From Deltaproteobacteria bacterium (GTDB lineage Bacteria > Omnitrophota > Gorgyraeia > Gygaellales > Profunditerraquicolaceae), in assembly GCA_050258655.1 (NCBI GenBank), contig JBLMZF010000106.1, positions 2,669 through 66,668 of the forward strand: a DNA stretch of 64,000 nt, written 5' to 3'. Made by a program: the position numbers and the translations under genes. Shown piece after piece: positions 5,163 to 64,000 of the stretch. Below the pieces are notes generated by a model. That model did no database searches. It saw nothing but the letters and a program-made list of their open reading frames with translations, and was not told the DNA's origin. How positions within the stretch are numbered: the first letter of the stretch is position 1; every line of letters begins with the position of its first letter.

Positions 5163-6270
5163 TTATTTCTGTTTCATCCATTTCAGATAGGCCTCTATGA
5201 AACCGTCTATCTCCCCGTCAAGCACCGCCTGCGTGTTACCGGTCTCATAATCGGTGCGGTTGTCCTTCACCATCTGGTAGGGCTGCAGCACGTACGAACG
5301 GATCTGTGAACCCCACTCGATCTTCTTCTTCTCCGTCCCGACGGTCTTCTGCAGCTCCTCTTCCTTCTTGCGCTGCTCGTATTCGTATATCTTCGCCTTG
5401 AGGATCTTGAGCACGTTCTGCCTGTTCTGGTACTGCGAGCGCTCGTTCTGGCTCGACACCACGATCCCCGTCGGCTTATGGGTCATCCTGACCGCCGTAT
5501 CCGTCTTCTGCATGTGCTGGCCGCCCGGACCGGAAGCCCTGTATGTCTCGATGACCAGGTCCTTCTCCTCGATCTTGATCTCGCCGGTCTCCTCGATCTC
5601 GGGAAAAATGTCGACTGAGGCGAACGAGGTATGGCGGCGCTTGTTGGCGTCGAACGGCGAGATGCGCACCAGGCGGTGGACGCCGCGCTCAGACTTAAGG
5701 TACCCGAACGCGTAGGGGCCTTCGATAAGGATTGTGACGTTCTTGATGCCGGCCTCTTCGCCGTACAGGATGTCTATGGTCTTGACCCCGAAGCCCCTGC
5801 GTTCGGCCCAGCGCGTGTAAAGGCGCAGGAGCATCGAAGCCCAGTCGCAGGATTCCGTGCCGCCCGCTCCGGAGTTAATGCTCAGGTACGCGGAGTTCGG
5901 GTCGAACGGACCGTCAAGCAGCGTCCTGGACTCGATCGCCTCGACTTCCCCGACCAGCGCCGCCGAACTGCGGTCGAGGTCGGCCACCATATCCGGCTCC
6001 CCCTCGCCGGTGATAGCGGCTATCTCTTTAAGTTCTTCAAAACGCTTGTGCGCCTGTTCCCACGGCTCGACGACTGTCTTGAGGGATTTCAATTCCTTGA
6101 CGGTCCTGGAAGAGGATGCTTCATCGTTCCAGAACTCGGGGCTGGACATGAGGCCGGAAAGCTCGGCTATCTTGTGCTTCTTGCCCTCGATGTCAAAGAT
6201 ACCCTCGTAGGTTGCGCAGGATCTGCTCGATCGAGGAAAGGCGGACGTTGACGTCTTCGAGTAACGGCAT
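5163..6270 (-). CDS. prfB: peptide chain release factor 2, with programmed +1 ribosomal frameshift near 6195
   Basis: The downstream frame has the RF2-specific SPF motif and GGQ (…RISPFDANKRRHTSFASVD…GPGGQHMQKTDTAVRMTHKPTG…). The N-terminus MPLLEDVNVRLSSIEQILRNLRGYL ends at an in-frame TGA within CGAGGG TAT CTT TGA C. That is the canonical SD-like plus CUU UGA C shift site. A +1 shift continues as DIEGKKHKIAELSGLMSSPEFWND…. Confidence 0.9.
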
Positions 6271-6284
6271 AGGTATCCTTGGGT

Positions 6285-7358
6285 TTAGCGTTTCTTTATG
6301 CCCTTGAGGGCGAGAGAGAACTCGTCGGGGTTGTCGGAGAAGCTGGTCGCCTCTTCCACGCTGACCTTGCCCGCCTTGACGAGCCTGACCAGCGACTGGT
6401 CGAAGGAGTGCATACCGAACACTTCCGAATCCTCTATGAACTTGTTCATCTCCCAGATCTTGTTCTCCCTGATCAGCCTGCTTATCGTCGGGGAAAGCAG
6501 CATGACCTCGGACGCCGGGACGCGTTCGCTGCCGTCCTGAGTCGGGATAAGCCGCAGCGAGATCACGCCCTTGAGCAGCTGCGAGAGCTGGGAGCATACC
6601 TGGTTATGCTGGTGCGGGGGGAAGAAATTTATCATTCGCTCCGCGGTCTGGCAGGCGTTGACCGTATGCAGGGTGCTCAGCACGAGCACTCCCGTCTCGG
6701 CGGCCGTCAAAGCGGCCTGCATCGTCTCCATGTCGCGGATGTTCCCTATATAGATCACGTCGGGGCTCTGGAGCGTGAACGAACGCAGGGCGGCGGAATA
6801 GGAAGAAACGTCCTTGCCCAGCTCCCTCTGGTTGATGATGCAGTTCTTGTCCTGGAACGTGAACTCGATCGGCTCCTCGAGGGTGAAGATGTGCCTGTTG
6901 GCGTTGACGTTGATGTACTCGATCATGCTGGCGATCGTCGTCGATTTCCCCGAGCCCATCGTGCCTGTCAGCAGGATTATGCCGCGCCGCTCCATCGCCA
7001 GCTTCTTGAGCGTCTCGGCAGGCAGGCCGAGCTCTTCCATGGTCTTGATGAACGTCGGGACGTTACGGATGACTATCGAGGGGTAGTTGCGCTGGGTAAA
7101 GATGCTGACGCGGAAACGGTGCTTGAGTTCCTGGCTGTAGTAGGCGAACTCGATGTCCAGGCTCTTCTTGAAGAACTCCCTGAGCTCCTCGGAAAGGAGG
7201 CGCTGAAGGGCGAAATCCATATCCGTCAGGTTGACGATGTCGTCCCCGAGCTTGACTATCTGGCCGTTAAGGCGCATGCGGACGGTGCCACCGACCCTGA
7301 AAAAAAGGTCGGACGCGTTCTTTTCGACCATCGTCCGAAGGCAATCGAGTATCTCCAA
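6285..7358 (-). CDS. pilT: type IV pilus retraction ATPase PilT/PilU family
   Basis: 357 aa. Walker A LLTGTMGSGKSTT; PilT-like Asp box and His box region (…IFTLEEPIEF…VIYIGNIRDMET…STLHTVNA…). Confidence 0.85.
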   Translation of the reverse strand: MEILDCLRTMVEKNASDLFFRVGGTVRMRLNGQIVKLGDDIVNLTDMDFALQRLLSEELREFFKKSLDIEFAYYSQELKHRFRVSIFTQRNYPSIVIRNVPTFIKTMEELGLPAETLKKLAMERRGIILLTGTMGSGKSTTIASMIEYINVNANRHIFTLEEPIEFTFQDKNCIINQRELGKDVSSYSAALRSFTLQSPDVIYIGNIRDMETMQAALTAAETGVLVLSTLHTVNACQTAERMINFFPPHQHNQVCSQLSQLLKGVISLRLIPTQDGSERVPASEVMLLSPTISRLIRENKIWEMNKFIEDSEVFGMHSFDQSLVRLVKAGKVSVEEATSFSDNPDEFSLALKGIKKR

Positions 7359-18021: not shown

Positions 18022-20439
18022 TTAGACGACGATGGTGACGAGTTTGCCGGGGATGACGATGAATTTCCTGATCTCTTTGCCGTCGAGCCAGGGCTTGGCT
18101 TTTTCGTCAGAAAGAACGGCGGCGCGGATCTCGGGCTCGCCCGCGGCCGCGGGGACTTCCACGCGCGAGCGGACTTTGCCGTTGATCTGGATCACGTAGG
18201 TGATAACGTTCTCGACCAGCATCGCCGGGTCATACTTCGGCCACGGCGCTTTGGCGATGTCGCCCTTATGGCAGGTCATCTCCCAGAGCTCCTCGCACAT
18301 GTGCGGCGTGATCGGCGAAAGCAGCTGAACGAGCGTCGATAAGATCTCGCGGTCAGCCCCGTACTGGTAGATGGCGTTGACGAACTCCATCATCGAGGCG
18401 ATGGCGGTGTTGAACTTGAAGTTCTCCAGGTCGTCGGTGACCTTCTTGACGGTCTTGTGCATCACCTTGAGCAGTGCCGGGTCGGACTTCTCTTTAAGGT
18501 TGTCCTGGATCCTCCAGACGCGGTTGAGGAACTTGAACGCGCCCTCGATACCGCGGTCATCCCACTCGAGCTCTGTCTCGGGCGGAGCGGCGAAGAGGAT
18601 GAACAGCCTCATGCTGTCGGCGCCGTATTTATCGATGATGGAATCGGGGTCGACGATGTTGCCCTTTGATTTAGACATGACCTCGCCGTCCTTGAGCACC
18701 ATGCCCTGCGTCAGCAGGCGCTTGAACGGCTCGTCGAAATCGACCATACCGAGGTCTTTGAAGAACTTGGTGAAGAAGCGCGAATAGAGAAGATGGAGGA
18801 TCGCGTGCTCGATGCCGCCGATATACTGATCGACCGGCATCCAGTACTTCGCTTCCTGCATGTCAAAAGGAGCCTGCGCGTCTTTCGGCGAACAATACCT
18901 GAGAAAATACCAGGAAGAGTCGAAGAACGTGGCCATGGTATCGGTCTCGCGCCGCGCCTTGCCGCCGCACTTCGGGCACTTCGTCTCGACGAATTCCTTG
19001 ACCTTGCCTAACGGGCTTCCGCCCTCTCCGGTGAAAGGCGCGTCCGCCGGCAGCTTGACCGGCAGTTCCTTGTACGGCACCGGCACGACCCCGCATTGAG
19101 GGCAGTAGACCATCGGGATGGGCGTGCCCCAGTATCTCTGACGGGAAATCAGCCAGTCGCGCAGGCGCCAATGGGTCTGGATCTTCCCGATCCCGGTCTT
19201 CTCCATCCACTCGGCGATCGCGGCCTTGGCCTTGACGTTGGGCATGCCGTCGAACTGCTTCGAATTCACCTCTTCGCCCTCGCCCTCGAACGCCTCGGTC
19301 ATCTCCGCCGCATCGAGCTTCGCGCCCTCAGGCTGGATGACCACGCGCATCGGCAGGCCGTGCTCTTTGGCGAACAGGAAATCACGCTGGTCATGGGTCG
19401 GGACGGCCATGATCGCCCCGGTCCCGTACTCCATCAGCACGTAATCGGCGGTCCAGATCGGCACCTCTTCCCCATTGACCGGGTTGACGGCATGCGCCCC
19501 GGTAAAAATACCTTCCTTCTTCACTCCTCCGGCACGGTCGACCTTGCTCTCTTCCGAGACGCGCTGGATGAAATCGGACACTTCCCTCTCGCGCGGCGTG
19601 CCTTTGACCAGCTCGGCGACAAGCGGATGCTCGGGAGCGAGAACGACATAGGTAGCTCCAAAGATAGTGTCCGGCCTGGTGGTAAATACCGGAATAACGC
19701 GGTCCGTACCCTTGAGCTTGAAATATATCTCCACACCCTGGCTCTTGCCGATCCAGTTGGTCTGCATCGCCACGACCCTCTCCGGCCACTGCGAAAGCTG
19801 GGAGAGATCATCCAGGAGGCGTTCCTTGTAATCAGTGATCTTCAGGTACCACTGCTCGAGCTCCTTCTGCTCGACCTGCGCGTGGCAGCGCCAGCAGCCG
19901 CCCTCGATGACCTCTTCATTGGCCAGCGTAGTCTGGCACGACGGGCACCAGTTGACCGACGATCCCTTCTTGTAGGCGAGACCGCGCTCGTACATCTTGA
20001 GGAATATCCACTGGTTCCAGGCGTAATAATCGGCGTCGCAGGTCGACACCTCGCGGTCCCAGTCGTAGGAGAAACCCATCTTCCTGAGCTCGACCTCCAT
20101 GTCGCGGATGCATTTATGTGTCCAGGCGTCAGGCTTGGTCTTGTTCTTGATCGCGGCGTTCTCGGCGGGCTGGCCGAACGCGTCGAAGCCCATCGGGTGC
20201 AAGACCTCGAAACCGCGGTTCCATTTATAGCGGCTGTAGACGTCGCCGATGGTGTAGTTGCGCACATGGCCCATGTGGATCTTGCCCGACGGGTACGGGA
20301 ACATCTCCAGGCAGTAGAACTTAGGGCGGGGGCCCACACCGGCACCTCCACTTGTGCCGGGTGGGACGGCCCTGAACGTTCCAAATTTCTGCCAGTGCGC
20401 ACGCCACTTCTCTTCTATCCGTTTGAAATCGTATTCCAT
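18022..20439 (-). CDS. leuS: leucine--tRNA ligase
   Basis: 805 aa. HIGH-type motif ([15 protein letters not shown]) and KMSKS (VMSKSKGN). CP1 editing domain present. Confidence 0.97.
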
Positions 20440-22361: not shown

Positions 22362-22437
<76 letters not shown>

Positions 22438-23054: not shown

Positions 23055-23137
23055 GCCGGGGTGTCGGAATGGCAGACGAGTCGGTCTCAAAAACCGATGT
23101 CCGAAAGGGCGTGAGGGTTCAACTCCCTCCCCCGGCA
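23055..23137 (+). tRNA. tRNA-Leu (anticodon CAA), type II with long variable arm
   Basis: GCCGGGGTGTCGGAATGGCAGACGAGTCGGTCTCAAAAACCGATGTCCGAAAGGGCGTGAGGGTTCAACTCCCTCCCCCGGCA. Acceptor 7 bp. 3-bp D stem. Anticodon stem TCGGT/ACCGA with loop CT-CAA-AA. Long variable arm. T-loop GTTCAAC. CCA not encoded. Confidence 0.85.
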
Positions 23138-38501: not shown

Positions 38502-41030
38502 CTACCTGTCCTTGTACAATCCGTCAAGTTTTGTCAGGCTGGGCAAAAGGTCCACGCCTTTGCCCAGCACTCCCCTCTCCCAGGCATTTCCCCGCGCCTG
38601 CATGCGCTCGGGCATGGTGCGGATGGTGAACTGCGCGGGATCGAGTTTCCGGGTCACCTCGTTCCAGGCAAGCGGACACGAAACGGTAGCCTTTTCCTTC
38701 GGCCGGACGGAATACGGAGCGGCCATCGTCTTTCCTTTCCCGTTTTGCAGGAAGTCGAGATAGACTTTGCCCTCGCGGGCATGGGGCATACGTTTGACAC
38801 TGGTGATCGCCGGGATCAGCGAGTTGACGTACCTGTTGACCAGTTCGGCAAAGGTGCGCGCCTGGTCATAGGTGTAACGGGCGGCAAGCGGCACATACAC
38901 ATGCATTCCTTTCGCGCCTGAGGTCTTGCAGTACGAAGGGCAGCCGATCTTCTCCAGGACCTCATGCGTCACCAGCACAGCCTCGACGACGTCCGCGAAC
39001 GATGCCAAATGCGGGTCGAAATCGAGCACCAGATAATCGGGGTAATCAGGTCTCTGTATCCGGGAATTCCACGGGTTTATCTCGATGCACCCGAGGTTTA
39101 CCATGTACAGGAGCGACGCCTCGTCCTGGCAGACCATGTACGAGACCGGCTCCTCTCCCGGCTCGCGAACGGTATACGTCTTTACCCAGTCCGGGACGAT
39201 ATCGCCCACGTTCTTGTGGAAAAAGCTCTTCCCGTGGATCCCGTTCGGGAAACGGTGGAGGGATTCGGGCCTGCCGGTAAGGAACGGCAGGATCCGGGAG
39301 GCAGCCGTCCGGTAATACTCGATCAGGTCGAGCTTGGTGTAGCCTTCGTCCGGCCAGAACACCTTGCTCAGGTTGGTGAGTTTCACCTCTCTGCCGCTCA
39401 CCGCGACGGTCTCTTCGTTCTCCTTTTTCTCAACGGGAAGAAACCGGCGGACGGGCGCGGCCTGCGGCGCCTCCCGCCTGACTTCCGACGGAGCCTTGTC
39501 AGAGCGGAGCCCCAGGAACACGGGATGGCGCATCAGACCTTCCTGCGTCCATTCGGTGAAACGCACTTCACAGACCAGCCGCGGCTCGACCCAGGCCGCA
39601 TCACGCGCCGACTCAAGGTTCCTGAACGGGGAGCGCTGACGCTCAAGCGGCTGGAGCCTCCGGAACAGCGAATCGAGTTCACGGTCGCTGAAGCCGCCCC
39701 CGCTGTGACCGATATAGACGAACCCGCCTTTTTCGTCATAGAGCCCCAAGAGCAGAGAACCGAAACGCGTGCGCCCGCCTTTGGGCGCGGTGAACCCCCC
39801 GATGACAGCCTCCTGTCGTTTCTCGGCCTTGACCTTCTGCCAGGTCCGGGTCCTCCTGCCTTCCTCGTACACGCTTGAGCCGTCCTTGGCAAGCATTCCC
39901 TCGACACCGTTCTCGACCACGAACCGGAACAGCTCAAGCCCTTTGTCCTCGATATGGGAGCTGAACCGTATATCTGTGACCAGAGGCGACAGGAATCTCT
40001 CGAGCAGCTCTTTGCGGCGGCGCAGGGGAAGGGAACGCAGGTCGTATCCGGCCAGAAAAAGCAGGTCGAACACGTAATACACAAGTATCCCCCTGCCCGT
40101 GCGGATGTAGTTCTGAAGAAGCTGGAAATCCGCCCGGCCTTTCTGATCGACCGCTACGATCTCTCCGTCGATCACCGCTGACGCAGAGAAACGGGAGAGT
40201 GAACGGAAAACGGGCTCGAACTGACGGCTGAAATCCTGGCCGTTGCGCGAGTAAAGGCGCGTTCCCTGCGGTCCTGTCTGGGCGATAGCGCGGTAACCGT
40301 CCCATTTTATCTCGAAAAGCCATCCCTGCCTGTCGAACGGCTCGTCGACAAGTGTGGCAAGCATGGGACGGACAATATGCGGGATGGAAGCGCGCGGGAC
40401 GCCGCCGGCCTCAAGCGGGGAAAGGTCCGGGGCGGGTATCCCGACGGGGCGGGAAGCGGTGCCGCCTGCGATCTCGCGCAGGTCGCGGCCGGAAAGGACA
40501 GACCTGTCCTCGCGGGTGATGTCGGACCCCGAAGCGGTATCGTCGTCCTTCTTGAACAGGAGCCAGGCGTTCTCGCCTCTTGACGGCATGCGCACGAGGT
40601 AGAATTCGCCCTTGAGCTTATGCCCTTCGAGCACGAACGCGACCCTGCCGTCGCGTATCTGGCGCTCGATCTCCTCACCGGGATCACCGTCGCCGTGGGC
40701 GGGCCTGTACGTCCCCCGGTCCCACACCATCACCGTACCGGCCCCGTAATTACCCTCGGGGATGGTCCCCTCGAACCCGGCGTAATCGAGCGGGTGGTCC
40801 TCAACCATCATCGCCAGCCGTTTAACACGGGGATCAAGGGAAGGCCCTTTCGGCACCGCCCAGCTCTTCAGGGCGCCGCCCGCCTCGATCCTCAGATCGT
40901 AATGCAGGTGCGACGCGCGGTGCTTCTGCACGACGAACGCGAGAGGTGCCCGTTTCTCTTCTGTCTTTCGGGGAGCTGGCTCGGGGGTACGGGACAGATC
41001 CCTCTTGCGCAGGTATTCCCTGAGGGCCAT
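38502..41030 (-). CDS. ligD: multidomain ATP-dependent DNA ligase LigD (phosphoesterase-ligase-polymerase)
   Basis: 842 aa. N-terminal 3'-phosphoesterase (FVVQKHRASHLHYDLRIE…WAVPKGPS). Central ligase with adenylation Lys (FEIKWDGYR). C-terminal LigD primase-polymerase domain. Confidence 0.9.
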   Translation of the reverse strand: MALREYLRKRDLSRTPEPAPRKTEEKRAPLAFVVQKHRASHLHYDLRIEAGGALKSWAVPKGPSLDPRVKRLAMMVEDHPLDYAGFEGTIPEGNYGAGTVMVWDRGTYRPAHGDGDPGEEIERQIRDGRVAFVLEGHKLKGEFYLVRMPSRGENAWLLFKKDDDTASGSDITREDRSVLSGRDLREIAGGTASRPVGIPAPDLSPLEAGGVPRASIPHIVRPMLATLVDEPFDRQGWLFEIKWDGYRAIAQTGPQGTRLYSRNGQDFSRQFEPVFRSLSRFSASAVIDGEIVAVDQKGRADFQLLQNYIRTGRGILVYYVFDLLFLAGYDLRSLPLRRRKELLERFLSPLVTDIRFSSHIEDKGLELFRFVVENGVEGMLAKDGSSVYEEGRRTRTWQKVKAEKRQEAVIGGFTAPKGGRTRFGSLLLGLYDEKGGFVYIGHSGGGFSDRELDSLFRRLQPLERQRSPFRNLESARDAAWVEPRLVCEVRFTEWTQEGLMRHPVFLGLRSDKAPSEVRREAPQAAPVRRFLPVEKKENEETVAVSGREVKLTNLSKVFWPDEGYTKLDLIEYYRTAASRILPFLTGRPESLHRFPNGIHGKSFFHKNVGDIVPDWVKTYTVREPGEEPVSYMVCQDEASLLYMVNLGCIEINPWNSRIQRPDYPDYLVLDFDPHLASFADVVEAVLVTHEVLEKIGCPSYCKTSGAKGMHVYVPLAARYTYDQARTFAELVNRYVNSLIPAITSVKRMPHAREGKVYLDFLQNGKGKTMAAPYSVRPKEKATVSCPLAWNEVTRKLDPAQFTIRTMPERMQARGNAWERGVLGKGVDLLPSLTKLDGLYKDR

Positions 41031-59098: not shown

Positions 59099-61039
59099 TT
59101 ACTCTTCCGCTTCGCCCGCGTGCTGCGCCTGGTACTTGGCGATGATCGGCTGCGCGATCTTGGCGGGCACCTGTTCGTAATGCGCGAAATGCATCGTGAA
59201 AGAACCCTTGCCCTGGGTCATCGAACGCAGGTCGCTGGCGTAGGTGAACATCTCGGAGAGCGGCACATGCGCCTTGACCACCTGCAGCTTGCCCTTGGCC
59301 TCCATGCCCATCGGCCTGCCGCGGCGCTGATTGAGGTCGCCGGATACCTGACCAAGGAATTCCTCGGTCACCAGGACGTCCACATCCATGATCGGCTCAA
59401 GCAGGACAGGGCCCGCGAGGGCGACCGCTTTCTTGAGCGCCAGAGAACCCGCGCGCTGAAATGCGGCATCCGAGGAATCGACGTCATGGTAAGAACCGTC
59501 GTAAAGGCTGACCTTGATGTCGACCATCGGGTAGCCCGCGAACACGCCGCGGGTCATCGTGTTGATGATGCCCTTCTCGACCGAGGGGATAAAGTTCCTC
59601 GGGATGGCTCCCCCGACGACATTGTCCTCGAACTCGAAGCCCTTGCCGTGCTCCAGGGGCCAGATCTCGATCCAGCAGTCGCCGTACTGCCCGCGGCCGC
59701 CGGACTGCCTCTTGTACTTGCCCTGGACCTTGATGCCGCCCTTCGAGATCGTCTCCTTATACGGGACCTTCGGGGTGCCCAGTTCGACGTCGACGTTGAA
59801 GCGCTTCTTGAGCCTGCCGATCATCACGTGCAGGTGCAGGTCGCCCAGGCCGGAGATGACCATCTCCTTGGTCTCGGGGTCGACCTTCTCGCGGAACGTC
59901 GGGTCCTCGGCGACAAGCTTCTGCAGCGCCTGGGTGATCTTCTCCTCGTCCTGCCGCGTCTTCGGCTTGACCGAAGCGGACATCATCGACTCGGGGAAGG
60001 CGATGGGCTTGAAGAGAGCCTTCGAGCCGGCCGCGCCGATCGTGTCGTTGGTCTTGGTCTCCTTGAGCTTCGGGATCGCGATGATATCGCCGCAGGAAGC
60101 GCCTTCCTGGACGCGCTGTTCCTTCCCCTGGAGGAGCATGATCTGGCCGAACCGCTCGTTCGTCTGCTGAGACACATTAAAGAACGACGTGTTCGTGGCA
60201 AGCCTGCCCGAAAGGACCTTGACCAGGCTCAACTGGCCCACATAGGGATCGAATATGCTTTTGAAGACGAAGCCGGTGAACGGCGAGGCGTCGGAAGCCG
60301 TCACTTCCCCCTGCCCCATCTGCATGTGGCAGAATTCGAGCGGAGAAGCGAGGTCATCCTTTACCGCCTTGAGCAGCTCGTCGATGCCTTTGTCCGCCGT
60401 CGCCGAACCGAACAGGATCGGGAACACCTTGCCCGCGTCGACCGCTTTCGGAAGGGCTTCCCTTATCTCTTCGGAAGTGAGCGTGCCTTCGGTAAGATAC
60501 TTCTCGGTGAGCTTGTCGTCGCTTTCGGCCACCGCCTCAGCCAGTTCGTCAAGGGAGCCGCTGGCGAGCACGACAGCGTTCTTGGAAAGGTTCTTCTTTA
60601 TGTCGGAGAGGACCTTTTCCCGGTCGAAGTCTTCCTTATCGATCTTGTTGACGAAGATGATCCGGGGCATCTTCGCCTCCTCGAGCAGTTCCCAGGCCTT
60701 TTCTGTCCCGATCTCGACACCCTGCCCCCCGTCGACGACGACGATCGCGTTGTCGGCGGCGCGGATCGAGGAAAGCACCTCGCCGTAGAAATCGGCGAAA
60801 CCGGGAGTGTCGACGATCTGGATGCGCGTGTGGTCATACTCGCAGAACATGAAGCTCGCGTTGATGGAAGACTTGCGCTCGACCTCGTCGAAATTGTAAT
60901 CGCTGACCGTATTCCCCTCTGCGGTGGTCCCCTTACGGGTGGTCGCACCGCATTTAAAAAGCATCGCTTCGCAAAGGCTTGTCTTGCCGACCTGGGCATG
61001 ACCGAGCAGGATAACGCTTCTTTTGTCCTTTACTTCCAT
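59099..61039 (-). CDS. elongation factor G-like GTPase (EF-G paralog)
   Basis: All five EF-G domains present. G1 GHAQVGKTS, G3 VDTPGFADF, G4 VNKIDKED. Domain IV loop region …HDVDSS…. Start at MEVKDKRSVILLG (61039). The ORF-track N-terminal extension was rejected. Confidence 0.85.
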   Translation of the reverse strand: MEVKDKRSVILLGHAQVGKTSLCEAMLFKCGATTRKGTTAEGNTVSDYNFDEVERKSSINASFMFCEYDHTRIQIVDTPGFADFYGEVLSSIRAADNAIVVVDGGQGVEIGTEKAWELLEEAKMPRIIFVNKIDKEDFDREKVLSDIKKNLSKNAVVLASGSLDELAEAVAESDDKLTEKYLTEGTLTSEEIREALPKAVDAGKVFPILFGSATADKGIDELLKAVKDDLASPLEFCHMQMGQGEVTASDASPFTGFVFKSIFDPYVGQLSLVKVLSGRLATNTSFFNVSQQTNERFGQIMLLQGKEQRVQEGASCGDIIAIPKLKETKTNDTIGAAGSKALFKPIAFPESMMSASVKPKTRQDEEKITQALQKLVAEDPTFREKVDPETKEMVISGLGDLHLHVMIGRLKKRFNVDVELGTPKVPYKETISKGGIKVQGKYKRQSGGRGQYGDCWIEIWPLEHGKGFEFEDNVVGGAIPRNFIPSVEKGIINTMTRGVFAGYPMVDIKVSLYDGSYHDVDSSDAAFQRAGSLALKKAVALAGPVLLEPIMDVDVLVTEEFLGQVSGDLNQRRGRPMGMEAKGKLQVVKAHVPLSEMFTYASDLRSMTQGKGSFTMHFAHYEQVPAKIAQPIIAKYQAQHAGEAEE

Positions 61040-61236
61040 CACGATCTCCTTTTGGTTTCCGTGGCGGTTTCCAAAGAAAAGATTGACGTCAGGCGAGGAA
61101 AGCTTTTTGTGGGATTGGTTCCAAAGGCAATTATAAAGAACGGAGCAAAGAAGCAATTTTAATTATACGACGGAAGGATATGTGCGGCAAGTGTTTTTCT
61201 GCCTGCTAAAACGACGGGAAGGGTCCCTGGAAGGGA

Positions 61237-64000
61237 TTACTGCAGGGCGGCGGTCTCGAGGCCCAGAACGACCTTCAGGGTCTCGATAATGTCTTTGGAA
61301 GAACGGGTGCCGTTCTCCTCTTCCAGCCTGAGGATATAGGCGATGCGGGTCCTGGCCCGGGCTATTGCGGCAGGGGCAGCGGGTACATGCTCACGGCAGT
61401 CGCCCAGGTAGCCCTTGACACTATCTTCGCTGGGCATCATCCCCGCGACAAGCATATTGTCGAACCGGAAGTCGACGCCGCCGGCGGCGTCCTCCCCTCC
61501 GTCCTTCGCGAGCTTCGGGCTCAATCTCGTGTAGTCCTGATGCACAACCGCGTAACCGCCTGCGGCTTCCATCTTCGCCAGGAACTTCTCCCACGGCATC
61601 TTGTAAAGCGCGACCAGGAGCCCGAAGCCGGGTCTCTGAGGGTCGATGGCCTGCTCGCCCGGGTCTTTACCGGTCGTCCGCTCGATATGCTTCCGGTACG
61701 CCTGCTGTCTAAACAGCATTGCCTTGGGGGTCGCCCGGGACTTGCCCGAATCACGCATCATCTCGACTAACTCCCGGCTGTCGGTCTTATTCACTACCTC
61801 CTTGAACTGCTCTTCTGGAATCGAATCTATGACCAGCGACCAGTCAGTCGGTTCATATATATGACCGTAGTCCAGAATGATCACTTTCTTCAGCATTCCC
61901 AGTTCCGGTTTATTCTGATAAGCCTGAGTGACATGGGCAAGTAACAGAGGATTATTATAGACTGCGTACTTGATGCTGCGGGCGAGCTGATATTCCGCAT
62001 CTGAGCCTATAGCGCTTATCCACGAGACGATAAGATCATCCAATTCAGAAAAGCCGATCCTAATGCTATTAGAGGATTCAAGCGAATCGGCTAAAGCTTC
62101 GGCAAGATCATCCTTAACAGGAATCTTGTTTGTCTCTTTTATGCCTGAAATAACCTGCCCGTACAGAGCAGGATTACCACTGATGGCATACTTCAGAATA
62201 TTGGTCGTTGTCAAACCATTAAAGGCATGGACAAGTATATCCATTTCTTCAGGAGTGACCTTAATGTGCAGGTATCCGTTGCTTGCATAACGAAGGAGAA
62301 CTTCGATAGCCTCTGTAAGCGCAGTTATAACAGCTTCGTTCCTGGTTTCTTTTAAAGCCGTGACCATCAATTTATACACTTCCTCGTTATTCTTGACGGC
62401 ATCGATCGCATTGATAAAGACCCACTGTAGATTTCCCCAGGCAAACTCGCCTTTCGCAGCGTCAAGCGCGGCAATAAGAGTATGCAGATCGTCGGAAGAC
62501 AACCTTAGATCATACTTTTTCCCGCGGGCGGCCTTGAAAGCGTCGATTAAGACTTCGGCCAGCACGTCACGGACACTGTCCTCTGTCGTTACTTTCAAAG
62601 CGGCGATGACCTGGCCGTACAATTCCGGGCTGTTAAGCAGCATGTTATTAATATCCTCTTTTAACTGCCGCGGAATCCCGTACCGAGATACCCGTCTGAG
62701 CGCTTCTAATTTTTCTTTTAATGACTGTTCTTCCCCACCGTCCTTAGCGGCCCACGCGCTCAATCTTGTAGGCTCCTTGTGCACGACTTCATATCCTCCC
62801 GAGGCCTCCATCTTCGCCAGAAACTTCTCCCAGGGCATTTTGTAGAGCGCGACAAGGAGGGAAAATCCTTCTTTCTTTGGATCGATGGGCTGTTCTCCGG
62901 GATCCTCGCCGCCAGCCCGCTTGATCGACTCCCTGTACGCGATCTGTTTCATGGCCATGGCCTTGCTTGTCACCTGGCCATTGTCTACGGCAAAGAACAT
63001 ATCCCTGTAACCATCTTCATCTCCCTTAATAAGGGCATGAAGAGCATCCGAGGGGATCGACGACAGGACGAGCGACCAGTCTGTCCGGCTGTTAATGCCA
63101 AGATATTCGTGCGGATAGAGGCCGTTTTGTCTGCATCTTTCAAATGCCGAGCCGAACAAAGGCTGCAAGCGGGGCCATTCACGTTTGCCCAAAGAGCTCC
63201 TTACAGCGGATACCAGGGTGAGATCATTCCACAAGGCTTCCTGGATACTCTCTTCGAAACGATCGATAGCCCATTTAGAATCCGTTACTCCTTGCGGTAT
63301 AGTAAAGAGCGCGTCAATGAGGGCGCCGAATTCCTCCTGGGCCAAAACGATCGGCCGCCCGTCTTCTCTGGAAAACTTCAGGGAAGTGACTAATGTCCTC
63401 GCGAACATCCCCCGCCAGGTAACGGTCCCGGCACCCTTGATCTCGGCAAAGAAACGTCCCATCATCTGCGGATTCTTCCTGAGCGCTCCCTCGACGCACA
63501 TTTCATAATCCCAGAGCTCTTCGTCATGCCTTTCGTAGGCGCTCCTCATAAGCGCGATATAGAAATCGAACTCTTCCGGCGTCCCCCTGAGGATCCGCGT
63601 GGCGCGGGACGTCCTCAACGCATAACCGAGAGCATACACAAGCGCGCGCGATTCTTCTTCTCCGGCGACCCGCAAGGCCGCGACGACCTGTTTATACAAG
63701 GCCGGGTTTACATGGAGAGTGTAGGTGATTTCCTGTTTAAGATGGTACTTTTCTTCTTTTGAAGAAGCCAGCTTGAGCGCCTCGATCTTCCCTGCGAGAT
63801 AAGACGTATTGTAGATATCCTTCTTCGACCTTCTCCCGCCGTCCTTCGCGATCTTCGGGCTCAGCCTTGTGTAATCAGCGTGTACCGCCGCGTATCCGCC
63901 ACAGGCTTCTATCTTCGCCAGGAACTTCTCCCACGGCATCTTGTAGAGCGCGACCAGGAGCGAGAAACCGGGTTTCTGCGGGTCGATAGGCTGCTCGCCG
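61237..64000 (-). CDS. giant modular repeat protein of unknown function (C-terminal >900 aa in window; ORF continues beyond window end)
   Basis: No stop reading 5' of 63939 to the window edge. Contains at least 3 to 4 tandem modules of about 400 aa, with near-identical junctions GFxLLVALYKMPWEKFLAKMEAxGGYxVVHxDYTRLSPKxAKDGGE and divergent cores. No signal peptide or TM seen in the part present. Unique C-terminal tail of about 90 aa. Confidence 0.7.
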   Translation of the reverse strand, partial: GEQPIDPQKPGFSLLVALYKMPWEKFLAKIEACGGYAAVHADYTRLSPKIAKDGGRRSKKDIYNTSYLAGKIEALKLASSKEEKYHLKQEITYTLHVNPALYKQVVAALRVAGEEESRALVYALGYALRTSRATRILRGTPEEFDFYIALMRSAYERHDEELWDYEMCVEGALRKNPQMMGRFFAEIKGAGTVTWRGMFARTLVTSLKFSREDGRPIVLAQEEFGALIDALFTIPQGVTDSKWAIDRFEESIQEALWNDLTLVSAVRSSLGKREWPRLQPLFGSAFERCRQNGLYPHEYLGINSRTDWSLVLSSIPSDALHALIKGDEDGYRDMFFAVDNGQVTSKAMAMKQIAYRESIKRAGGEDPGEQPIDPKKEGFSLLVALYKMPWEKFLAKMEASGGYEVVHKEPTRLSAWAAKDGGEEQSLKEKLEALRRVSRYGIPRQLKEDINNMLLNSPELYGQVIAALKVTTEDSVRDVLAEVLIDAFKAARGKKYDLRLSSDDLHTLIAALDAAKGEFAWGNLQWVFINAIDAVKNNEEVYKLMVTALKETRNEAVITALTEAIEVLLRYASNGYLHIKVTPEEMDILVHAFNGLTTTNILKYAISGNPALYGQVISGIKETNKIPVKDDLAEALADSLESSNSIRIGFSELDDLIVSWISAIGSDAEYQLARSIKYAVYNNPLLLAHVTQAYQNKPELGMLKKVIILDYGHIYEPTDWSLVIDSIPEEQFKEVVNKTDSRELVEMMRDSGKSRATPKAMLFRQQAYRKHIERTTGKDPGEQAIDPQRPGFGLLVALYKMPWEKFLAKMEAAGGYAVVHQDYTRLSPKLAKDGGEDAAGGVDFRFDNMLVAGMMPSEDSVKGYLGDCREHVPAAPAAIARARTRIAYILRLEEENGTRSSKDIIETLKVVLGLETAALQ
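61500..61700. repeat. conserved module-junction repeat copy (intragenic, about 1.2 kb period)
   Basis: cgccaggaacttctcccacggcatcttgtaaagcgcgaccaggagcccgaagccgggtctctgagggtcgatggcctgctcgcccgg at 61573 onward matches the copies near 62813 and 63916 at about 80-90 percent nucleotide identity. Confidence 0.8.
62740..62960. repeat. conserved module-junction repeat copy (intragenic)
   Basis: cgccagaaacttctcccagggcattttgtagagcgcgacaaggag… is homologous to the 61573 and 63916 copies. Confidence 0.8.
63830..64000. repeat. conserved module-junction repeat copy (intragenic, truncated by window end)
   Basis: cgccaggaacttctcccacggcatcttgtagagcgcgaccaggagcgagaaaccgggtttctgcgggtcgataggctgctcgcc is nearly identical to the copy at 61573. 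Confidence 0.8.

Follow-up and report, generated by a model that had tools for sequence, protein, structure and literature searches.

A hypothetical protein at the edge of a metagenomic contig is probably the tail of a giant single-chain midasin-like AAA/VWA protein with capped solenoid arms

A long minus-strand open reading frame (ORF) lies at the end of a stretch of 64,000 nucleotides, referred to here as the window, from contig JBLMZF010000106.1 (positions 2,669 to 66,668) of the metagenome-assembled genome (MAG) GCA_050258655.1. An earlier note, made from the letters of the window alone, had described it as a giant, cytoplasmic-looking ORF in which invariant junctions alternate with divergent cores. 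The largest omission of that description is that the ORF is a mere tail. Judged by protein overlaps, it is the last 14% of a gene encoding about 6,455 residues, which short-read assembly has split over at least four contigs. The gene as a whole probably encodes a single-chain, midasin-like AAA/VWA protein with capped solenoid arms. One chain joins a midasin-like AAA/VWA engine with two arms made of helical arrays, each array being closed by a junction domain and bounded by a short delimiter motif. The junction domain is undescribed. The protein as a whole is not categorically new, since it belongs to kinds already known: the long proteins of Omnitrophota and the MoxR/midasin-VWA machines.

The minus-strand frame is open from the window edge at 63999 for 920 codons until the stop at 61237-61239. 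This stretch (61237..63999) corresponds to residues ~5536-6455 of the reconstructed protein; the version of the same ORF that begins at the first ATG, as given in the ORF listing, spans 61237..63939. The translation is 100% identical to P0001, a protein of 1179 residues annotated by NCBI as 'hypothetical protein' (locus ACM3OC_06855). The modular architecture proposed in the earlier note is borne out, with three junction copies in this one frame of 920 codons. In gene order, and all on the minus strand, the fragment comprises the C-terminal 54 residues of the fourth junction, or cap, domain of the gene (63838..63999; P0001 residues 260-313, the hidden Markov model (HMM) envelope in P0001 being 184-313); core A, an all-helical HEAT-like array of sub-repeats 237 residues long with no Pfam match (63127..63837; residues 314-550); the complete fifth junction (62737..63126; residues 551-680; 114.9 bits); core B, an all-helical array of 289 residues in roughly four units of ~70 residues (61870..62736; residues 681-969); the sixth and last junction (61498..61869; residues 970-1093; 104.9 bits); and a unique C-terminal tail of 86 residues (61240..61497), which is similar neither to the cores nor to the N-terminal domain. 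Against the family HMM the in-window junctions score 105-119 bits.

A 16-mer, LLVALYKMPWEKFLAK, is invariant in the window ORF at 63913-63960, 62812-62859 and 61573-61620. Its copies start at residues 14, 381 and 794 of the fragment, with spacings of 1101 and 1239 nucleotides, and both complete junctions are preceded by the upstream block TDWSL..SIP..AM..Q.AY..DPGEQ.IDP. A six-frame motif search of the 64 kb located LLVALYK and MPWEKF three times each and TDWSLV and DPGEQ twice each, all in the frame of the giant ORF, and no junction motif elsewhere in the window, positions 1-1000 included. A fourth copy, which had been placed at the very 5' edge of the window, turns out to be the one already counted at protein position 1. 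The fragment has neither a transmembrane segment nor a signal peptide, and Pfam, NCBIfam and PDB sequence searches agree with the earlier impression that it holds no known family. Matches of the fragment to the Pfam/NCBIfam models CppA_N, HEAT_SCC3-SA and ISLre2 were sub-threshold noise.

When 5.8 billion proteins were searched with the fragment, just three matched, all from one NCBI MAG with the locus prefix ACM3OC_: P0001 itself, P0002 (1003 residues, partial) and P0003 (1228 residues, partial, with an AAA_5 domain). A further protein of the same MAG, brought up by an HMM search with the junction, is P0004 (NCBI MGE5309381.1, 'VWA domain-containing protein, partial', 2845 residues), encoded by a contig of 8537 nucleotides which is ORF throughout. 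The last 32 residues of P0002 are the first 32 of P0003, the break falling within a junction. P0004 ends SAAQVDKIFKIFTFFFEKDRGYPGYQE and P0001 begins MDKIFKIFTFFFEKDRGYPGYQE, with 22 of 22 residues identical after the first, and this overlap string occurs once only in each protein. P0005, a complete relative of 6703 residues on a 117-kb ENA contig, is colinear with the four pieces. Residues 78-1228 of P0003 align with residues 2076-3231 of P0005 at 43% identity, and residues 1-1533 of P0004 with residues 3487-5041 at 38%; the N-terminal domains of P0002 and P0016 align with each other. A stretch of ~255 residues is missing from the reconstruction, at a position which coincides with that of the second Walker A motif in relatives. 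The resulting order is a signal-peptide-like helix, a leader of ~350 residues, one module of array plus junction, the engine, five further modules of array plus junction and the 86-residue tail. Of the five modules that follow the VWA domain, the final two and a half lie in the window. One 'hypothetical protein' and three 'partial' proteins of a single MAG are on this evidence pieces of one gene for a protein of ~6.5 thousand residues, and the earlier expectation that the gene runs on beyond the window edge is correct.

The NCBI annotation implies something different, namely that P0001 is a stand-alone protein of 1179 residues with its own start codon, which merely resembles the tail of a giant gene. 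P0001 is indeed not labelled partial by NCBI, whereas P0002, P0003 and P0004 are, and it opens with M at a position where P0004 has V. The latter difference is the one expected of a GTG codon, which is read as M when it is called as a start and as V when it is internal. The 22 residues after the supposed start match the extreme end of a contig that is ORF throughout, in a string that is unique, whereas paralogous modules of the giant gene are just ~50-60% identical even in the junction. Furthermore, the modules following the VWA domain share the ORF of the engine in P0005 and in the giant ORF L002, and L006 and L007 are likewise contigs which start inside such a tail. A separate gene is accordingly improbable.

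The engine at the centre of the chain is conserved across the family. Each of the eight members whose sequence covers the centre has exactly three Walker A motifs, ~690-770 residues apart. All eight also carry an invariant HE(L/F/I)GH ~455 residues past the third Walker A, followed ~270 residues later by a DxSGS motif of the metal-ion-dependent adhesion site (MIDAS) type wherever the sequence extends that far. The HExxH motif lies at residue 1045 of P0004 and residue 4541 of P0005, and is also found in the giant ORFs L001-L005; its segment has no Pfam match and resembles no peptidase family, and may represent a zinc-peptidase-like site. The VWA domain of P0004 (residues 1306-1443) was matched with E = 1.3e-5 and 25.9 bits against a Pfam cut-off of 23.8, its MIDAS motif DVSGS being intact at residue 1312, and VWA also exceeds the Pfam cut-off in a tile of P0005. 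Pfam matched AAA_5 in P0003, P0016 and P0020. The midasin AAA lid, AAA_lid_7, was matched in P0016 (E = 1.1e-5, 26 bits, cut-off 22.7) and in P0020, and not in the ACM3OC_ fragments P0003 and P0004. When family profiles of P-loop modules 1, 2 and 3 were compared with the PDB, the best natural match of each was midasin, with E = 2e-5, ~1e-13 and 6e-13, respectively. The next natural AAA+/P-loop matches were EccA1 for module 1 (E = 4e-4) and entries with E of at least 0.006 for modules 2 and 3; for module 2, dynein came at E ~0.4. The three modules are mutually homologous (hhalign probability 80-92%), and in P0005, P0020, L001, L002 and L005 all three stand with the VWA domain in one ORF. Single-sequence phmmer searches of P0001, P0003 and P0004 against PDB sequences gave nothing meaningful. 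A profile of the whole engine (2822 positions) also found nothing in the PDB, though its sub-blocks do match.

The likeness to midasin (Rea1/Mdn1), a eukaryotic AAA+ mechanoenzyme of 60S ribosome biogenesis, thus includes its place as the top natural PDB entry for each P-loop module, together with the lid family found in relatives of the window protein. It extends to the overall plan, in which several AAA_5-type modules share one very long chain with extended helical regions and a VWA domain with MIDAS stands much further on. The differences are equally plain. The giant protein has three recognisable AAA modules rather than six, an invariant HExxH module between its ATPase and VWA regions, and arrays with junctions on both sides of the engine; its VWA domain is not C-terminal, some 2,500 residues of modules coming after it; and its N-terminus is signal-peptide-like and followed by a phylum-specific leader. 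Its host is a bacterium (Omnitrophota) and it has no known relation to ribosome assembly. The function of midasin in the eukaryotic nucleus, the removal of assembly factors from pre-60S particles, therefore cannot apply as such.

Among bacteria, the pairs RavA-ViaA, NorQ-NorD and CbbQ-CbbO couple an ATPase of the AAA_5 clade to a VWA/MIDAS protein (PMC7159879, PMC13036017), and share with the giant protein the general principle that ATP drives remodelling and a metal-dependent domain binds the substrate. They consist, however, of separate, hexamer-forming ATPases of ~300 residues and a separate VWA protein, whilst the giant protein fuses three tandem P-loop modules and the VWA domain in a chain of ~6.5 thousand residues; the profile of module 2 moreover matches NorQ at E ~0.5 as against ~1e-13 for midasin. 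The engine is the closest bacterial counterpart of midasin found, with tandem AAA_5 modules and MIDAS in one chain. Tandem-AAA chains have been proposed to have arisen from MoxR 'early in eukaryotic evolution' (PMC3495828), and a bacterial tandem chain with midasin-specific similarity, of which three modules are shown, therefore bears on the question of their origin.

The junction is a domain of ~125 residues, all-alpha and undescribed, and is confined to this family of giant proteins. An exhaustive HMM search of 1.84 billion representative proteins matched 18 proteins, among which P0014 (FG-GAP-like) and P0015 and P0017 (both eukaryote-like) are, on inspection of their sequences, probable false positives. 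Iterated HMM searches identified 48 copies in the family proteins. Six belong to the reconstructed gene, of which one precedes the engine and five follow the VWA domain. P0006 has eight and P0005 seven, four ahead of its engine and three behind; in the DNA covered, the giant ORFs L002 and L005 show six each and L004 three. The signature comprises DW..(I/V)L, A(M/I)..KQ..Y, YK(L/M)PW..F and (F/V)H; in YKxPWxxF the Y, W and F never vary. The domain has no match in Pfam or NCBIfam and its profile finds no sequence relative in the PDB, so that the earlier view of it as undescribed stands. AlphaFold2, given the fifth copy of the gene and a family alignment of 28 sequences, returned a compact all-alpha model of nine helices with a predicted local distance difference test score (pLDDT) of 89.2 and a predicted template modelling score of 0.84. 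A fold search, with AFDB and the ESM Atlas outside its scope, gave no structural neighbour. The junction, confidently modelled and with no known sequence or structural relative, is a straightforward candidate for a new domain family. For searches of DNA the full family alignment proved too diverse for pattern design. A tighter subfamily pattern found two JGI metagenome loci only, and nothing in viral contigs. A scan of genome contigs with junction patterns of the ACM3OC_ MAG, which is itself not a GTDB representative, found no relative, and an exact 56-nucleotide search of JGI metagenome contigs had no match.

At the DNA level the repeat is far above chance (blastn within the ORF, E = 1e-17 to 1e-42). 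The earlier note had put the identity between junction copies at 80-90% and had taken this to imply recent duplication or ongoing homogenisation. The identity is 79-84%, and it is confined to the last 107-165 nucleotides of each copy; blastn detects no nucleotide similarity between the upstream halves, and the two complete copies, J2 and J3, are 60% identical overall. Among the 57 best-conserved codons, synonymous differences affect 24-48% of those that encode identical residues, and they occur even within the invariant 16-mer. Since synonymous sites have diverged inside invariant residues, the copies are held by purifying selection on the protein, and recent duplication or gene conversion is not needed.

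These numbers also bear on whether the tandem modules could be produced by mis-assembly of a repeat, through expansion or chimerism. Family assemblies do break at the junction, P0003, L001, L003 and L006 all beginning inside one. Even where their DNA is best conserved, however, the three in-window copies differ by 16-21%, and their cores are unique; they are therefore not collapsed or duplicated copies of a single sequence. The reading frame is intact throughout and the same multi-copy layout is present on 117-kb and 133-kb contigs from other samples, which makes an artefact very improbable. The breaks themselves are a recurrent feature: contigs of independent assemblies begin inside the junction, at or near YKxPW (L001:1-100, L003:1-100, L006:1-230 and the start of P0003). 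As the junction is a recurrent assembly breakpoint, such genes are likely to be under-counted in short-read MAGs. The contigs of L006 and L007 start within the C-terminal tail, like that of the window.

Divergent cores flanked by conserved junctions had suggested a modular effector, a polymorphic toxin or cassettes that recombine, the junctions serving as sites of exchange at a diversifying locus; the 79-84% identity in the 3' DNA of the junctions is in keeping with this. None of the toxin, immunity, Rhs, LXG, PT-HINT or defence models was matched in searches with Pfam, NCBIfam and PADLOC, and the window holds neither silent or orphan cassettes nor extra copies. The similar stretches of DNA are short and synonymously divergent, and the gene downstream encodes a homologue of elongation factor G (EF-G). 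Moreover, distant relatives keep the same architecture within an ATPase/VWA protein. The toxin or cassette explanation is largely refuted and must be regarded as most unlikely. The junction is instead read as a discrete capping or connector domain at the C-terminal end of each array, because every array is closed by the same junction although lineages differ in the repeat units of their cores.

The cores were earlier said to differ strongly from module to module. They are divergent, but they are also mutually related: cores A and B match each other repeatedly and out of register, at 23-34% identity and with E as low as 1e-7, and the cores of P0001 match those of a paralogous fragment in the same way, with E as low as 1.6e-9. 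Such out-of-register similarity is typical of arrays of short helical sub-repeats. Their secondary structure is all-helical in a low-confidence model (pLDDT 45), with regular helices of 10-19 residues. Other lineages use other units, 'KNFGLD...IIEIAKLCA' in P0005 and P0007 and 'W(V/I)DEL...AAIE..ILT' in P0006. Like HEAT/ARM alpha-solenoids, the cores are internally repetitive and fast-evolving, and those of relatives pass the Pfam cut-offs for HEAT, HEAT_2 and HEAT_EZ (P0010, HEAT_EZ, 42.9 bits; P0013, HEAT, 52.9 bits). The observation that would in the view of the earlier note have told against it, a match of the module cores to a known HEAT/ARM family, is thus made in P0010 and P0013 and not in the cores of P0001, whose best match, HEAT_SCC3-SA in core B, is below threshold (E = 0.15). 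A further difference from HEAT/ARM proteins lies in the domain that closes each array, which is discrete and conserved, is not of the HEAT type and has no structural neighbour.

Each array is also bounded by a short delimiter. In the reconstructed gene AKDGG occurs eight times, marking every module boundary. Three of these motifs are in the window, on the minus strand: the first at 63835..63849, the second at 62734..62748, where the junction model passes from order to disorder, and the third at 61495..61509, where the tail follows instead of a solenoid array. Two boundaries have the motif without a preceding junction, namely that between the leader and the first array (P0002, residue 395) and that between the VWA domain and the first array after it (P0004, residue 1527), and AKDGG is for this reason not truly part of the junction. 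Other lineages have different delimiters at the same places: PKPEATDM in P0005, PPKPPATDM in P0010 and PKPESPSM in P0009. Over the final 20 residues of the junction model the pLDDT drops from 81 to 49, the delimiter standing at the onset of disorder. A perfect 18-nucleotide palindrome, seen as a self-inverted blastn match at ORF nucleotides 2509-2526, lies inside the coding sequence at 61474-61491, just past the last AKDGG in gene sense.

Near-invariance within one protein combined with differences between lineages suggests that the delimiters co-evolve with a single reader. Two candidates may be named from sequence, the HExxH module, which would cleave, and the MIDAS site, which would dock on a conserved acidic residue; the delimiters are in other words candidate cleavage or docking sites. 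The former leads to the alternative that the giant chain is a precursor polyprotein, its delimiters being processing sites cut by a peptidase, most economically its own HExxH module, so as to release the individual solenoid-plus-cap proteins and the engine. Such a scheme would account for the presence of a delimiter at every boundary, including those after the leader and after the VWA domain, and for a pattern near-invariant per protein and specific to each lineage, as expected for sites co-evolving with one reader. It would also fit the predicted position of the delimiter in a disordered stretch right after the last helix of the junction and the conservation of HE(L/F/I)GH in every member that covers the centre, and the literature on giant proteins of Omnitrophota leaves cleavage open, stating that no cleavage points are known. 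On the other hand, the HExxH segment matches no peptidase family, the delimiters have no obvious shared chemistry beyond D/S followed by a small residue or M, and a docking motif, such as an acidic MIDAS ligand, or a plain conserved linker would give the same pattern; cleavage itself is a sequence-based proposal. A polyprotein therefore seems unlikely. The particular form in which the protein processes itself, its own HExxH module reading the delimiters so that a ~19-kb gene would yield an AAA/VWA engine and six solenoid-plus-cap proteins, is likewise doubtful, and were it true it would provide the first concrete cleavage points for the long proteins of Omnitrophota.

At the other end of the chain, all full-length members open with a stretch in which basic residues and a single hydrophobic helix lead to an AxA-like site: GFA/QV in P0002 (residues 1-27), VWA/SG in P0005, ASA/LG in P0009 and AQA/VV in P0016, the slash marking the presumed cut. 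P0006 likewise has a signal-peptide-like N-terminus. No further hydrophobic or transmembrane helix follows in the full-length members. The description 'cytoplasmic-looking' thus suits the fragment but not the reconstructed gene, given its signal-peptide-like helix. The leader domain of ~350 residues that comes next (P0002, residues 30-395) gave 295 matches at E < 1e-5, all named ones being from Omnitrophota, and has no Pfam family. It heads varied, mostly truncated proteins, among them HEAT-repeat proteins, a phosphoglycerate-kinase fusion and ACM3OC_07380 of the same MAG, and looks like a common leader module of the long proteins of this phylum.

Two papers have dealt with the giant proteins of Omnitrophota (West-Roberts et al. 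2023, bioRxiv, 10.1101/2023.11.21.568195; a 2026 preprint, 10.64898/2026.06.07.730766). Both list HEAT repeats and AAA_5 among the frequent domains, and midasin, MoxR, VWA, the junction domain and the delimiter are absent from both. The present protein resembles those described in its phylum, in having repeats without recent nucleotide tandems, in being encoded by a long ORF fragmented at the ends of MAG contigs, and in an N-terminal region with no known domain, here the shared leader. It differs in size, ~6,455 residues as against the focus there on proteins of at least 10 to 147 thousand residues. Unlike the Archaeovorin and Dockerin types, it has no multiple transmembrane helices, dockerin, TSP3 or enzyme clusters.

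How the parts might work together can be outlined as follows. The AAA+ modules and the VWA/MIDAS domain would form an ATP-driven engine, acting as a remodeller within a single chain, whilst the helical arrays of its two long arms would offer platforms on which partners or substrates bind, or tethers that hold them. The role of the caps would be to hold the arrays apart as separate beads, with the delimiters exposed, and the cores could drift, or adapt to different ligands, if just their character as helical repeats is constrained. A MoxR/midasin-type remodelling machine of this kind, with arms as platforms or tethers, is a tentative proposal which we put at slightly under an even chance.

Several observations weigh against this reading of the protein and of its mechanism. 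The three blocks between and before the P-loops match neither the P-loop modules (hhalign probability below 3%) nor any PDB chain, from alignments that are shallow (4 sequences) and in which degenerate AAA modules may yet be present; a visual impression of such modules was not borne out by the hhalign and PDB searches. As the intervening blocks match nothing, three AAA modules are claimed and not a ring of six. The cores of P0001 match no HEAT model and no Pfam family above threshold, and the AlphaFold2 model of the whole of P0001, made from a single sequence, is unusable for fold search at a pLDDT of 45. The contig joins rest on exact protein overlaps and colinearity rather than on reads. Since P0001 carries no partial flag at NCBI, a stop or frameshift upstream in its contig may exist. 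An engine driven by ATP sits uneasily with the export that the signal-peptide-like N-terminus predicts, and no conserved gene neighbourhood speaks for a role as a scaffold.

With regard to the host, the MAG is labelled 'Deltaproteobacteria bacterium' at NCBI. The named near relatives of the leucyl-tRNA synthetase of the window (LeuRS, 18022-20439), at 72-75% identity, are all Candidatus Omnitrophota and the giant-gene family is specific to Omnitrophota, for which reasons the label is doubtful and, to judge from these sequences, probably wrong. The engine is present in 5 of 185,579 GTDB species representatives, four of them Omnitrophota, including Ca. Omnitrophus magneticus, and one labelled Planctomycetales. 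In each, it is accompanied by a giant ORF in which the junction occurs several times.

The rest of the window is ordinary chromosome, encoding SecA, LeuRS, LigD, MurJ, Lnt, ComEC, PurH, MnmE and YchF. The EF-G homologue (59099-61156) is on the same, minus strand as the giant gene, 80 nucleotides downstream of it. The intergenic region between them (61157-61236) has no terminator-like hairpin and contains a promoter-like site at 61190..61162. LigD (38502-41030, minus strand) is of the three-domain form that combines phosphoesterase, ATP-dependent ligase and primase-polymerase and belongs to bacterial non-homologous end joining. This gene is ordinary, as are the two tRNA genes at 22365-22437 (minus strand) and 23055-23137 (plus strand).

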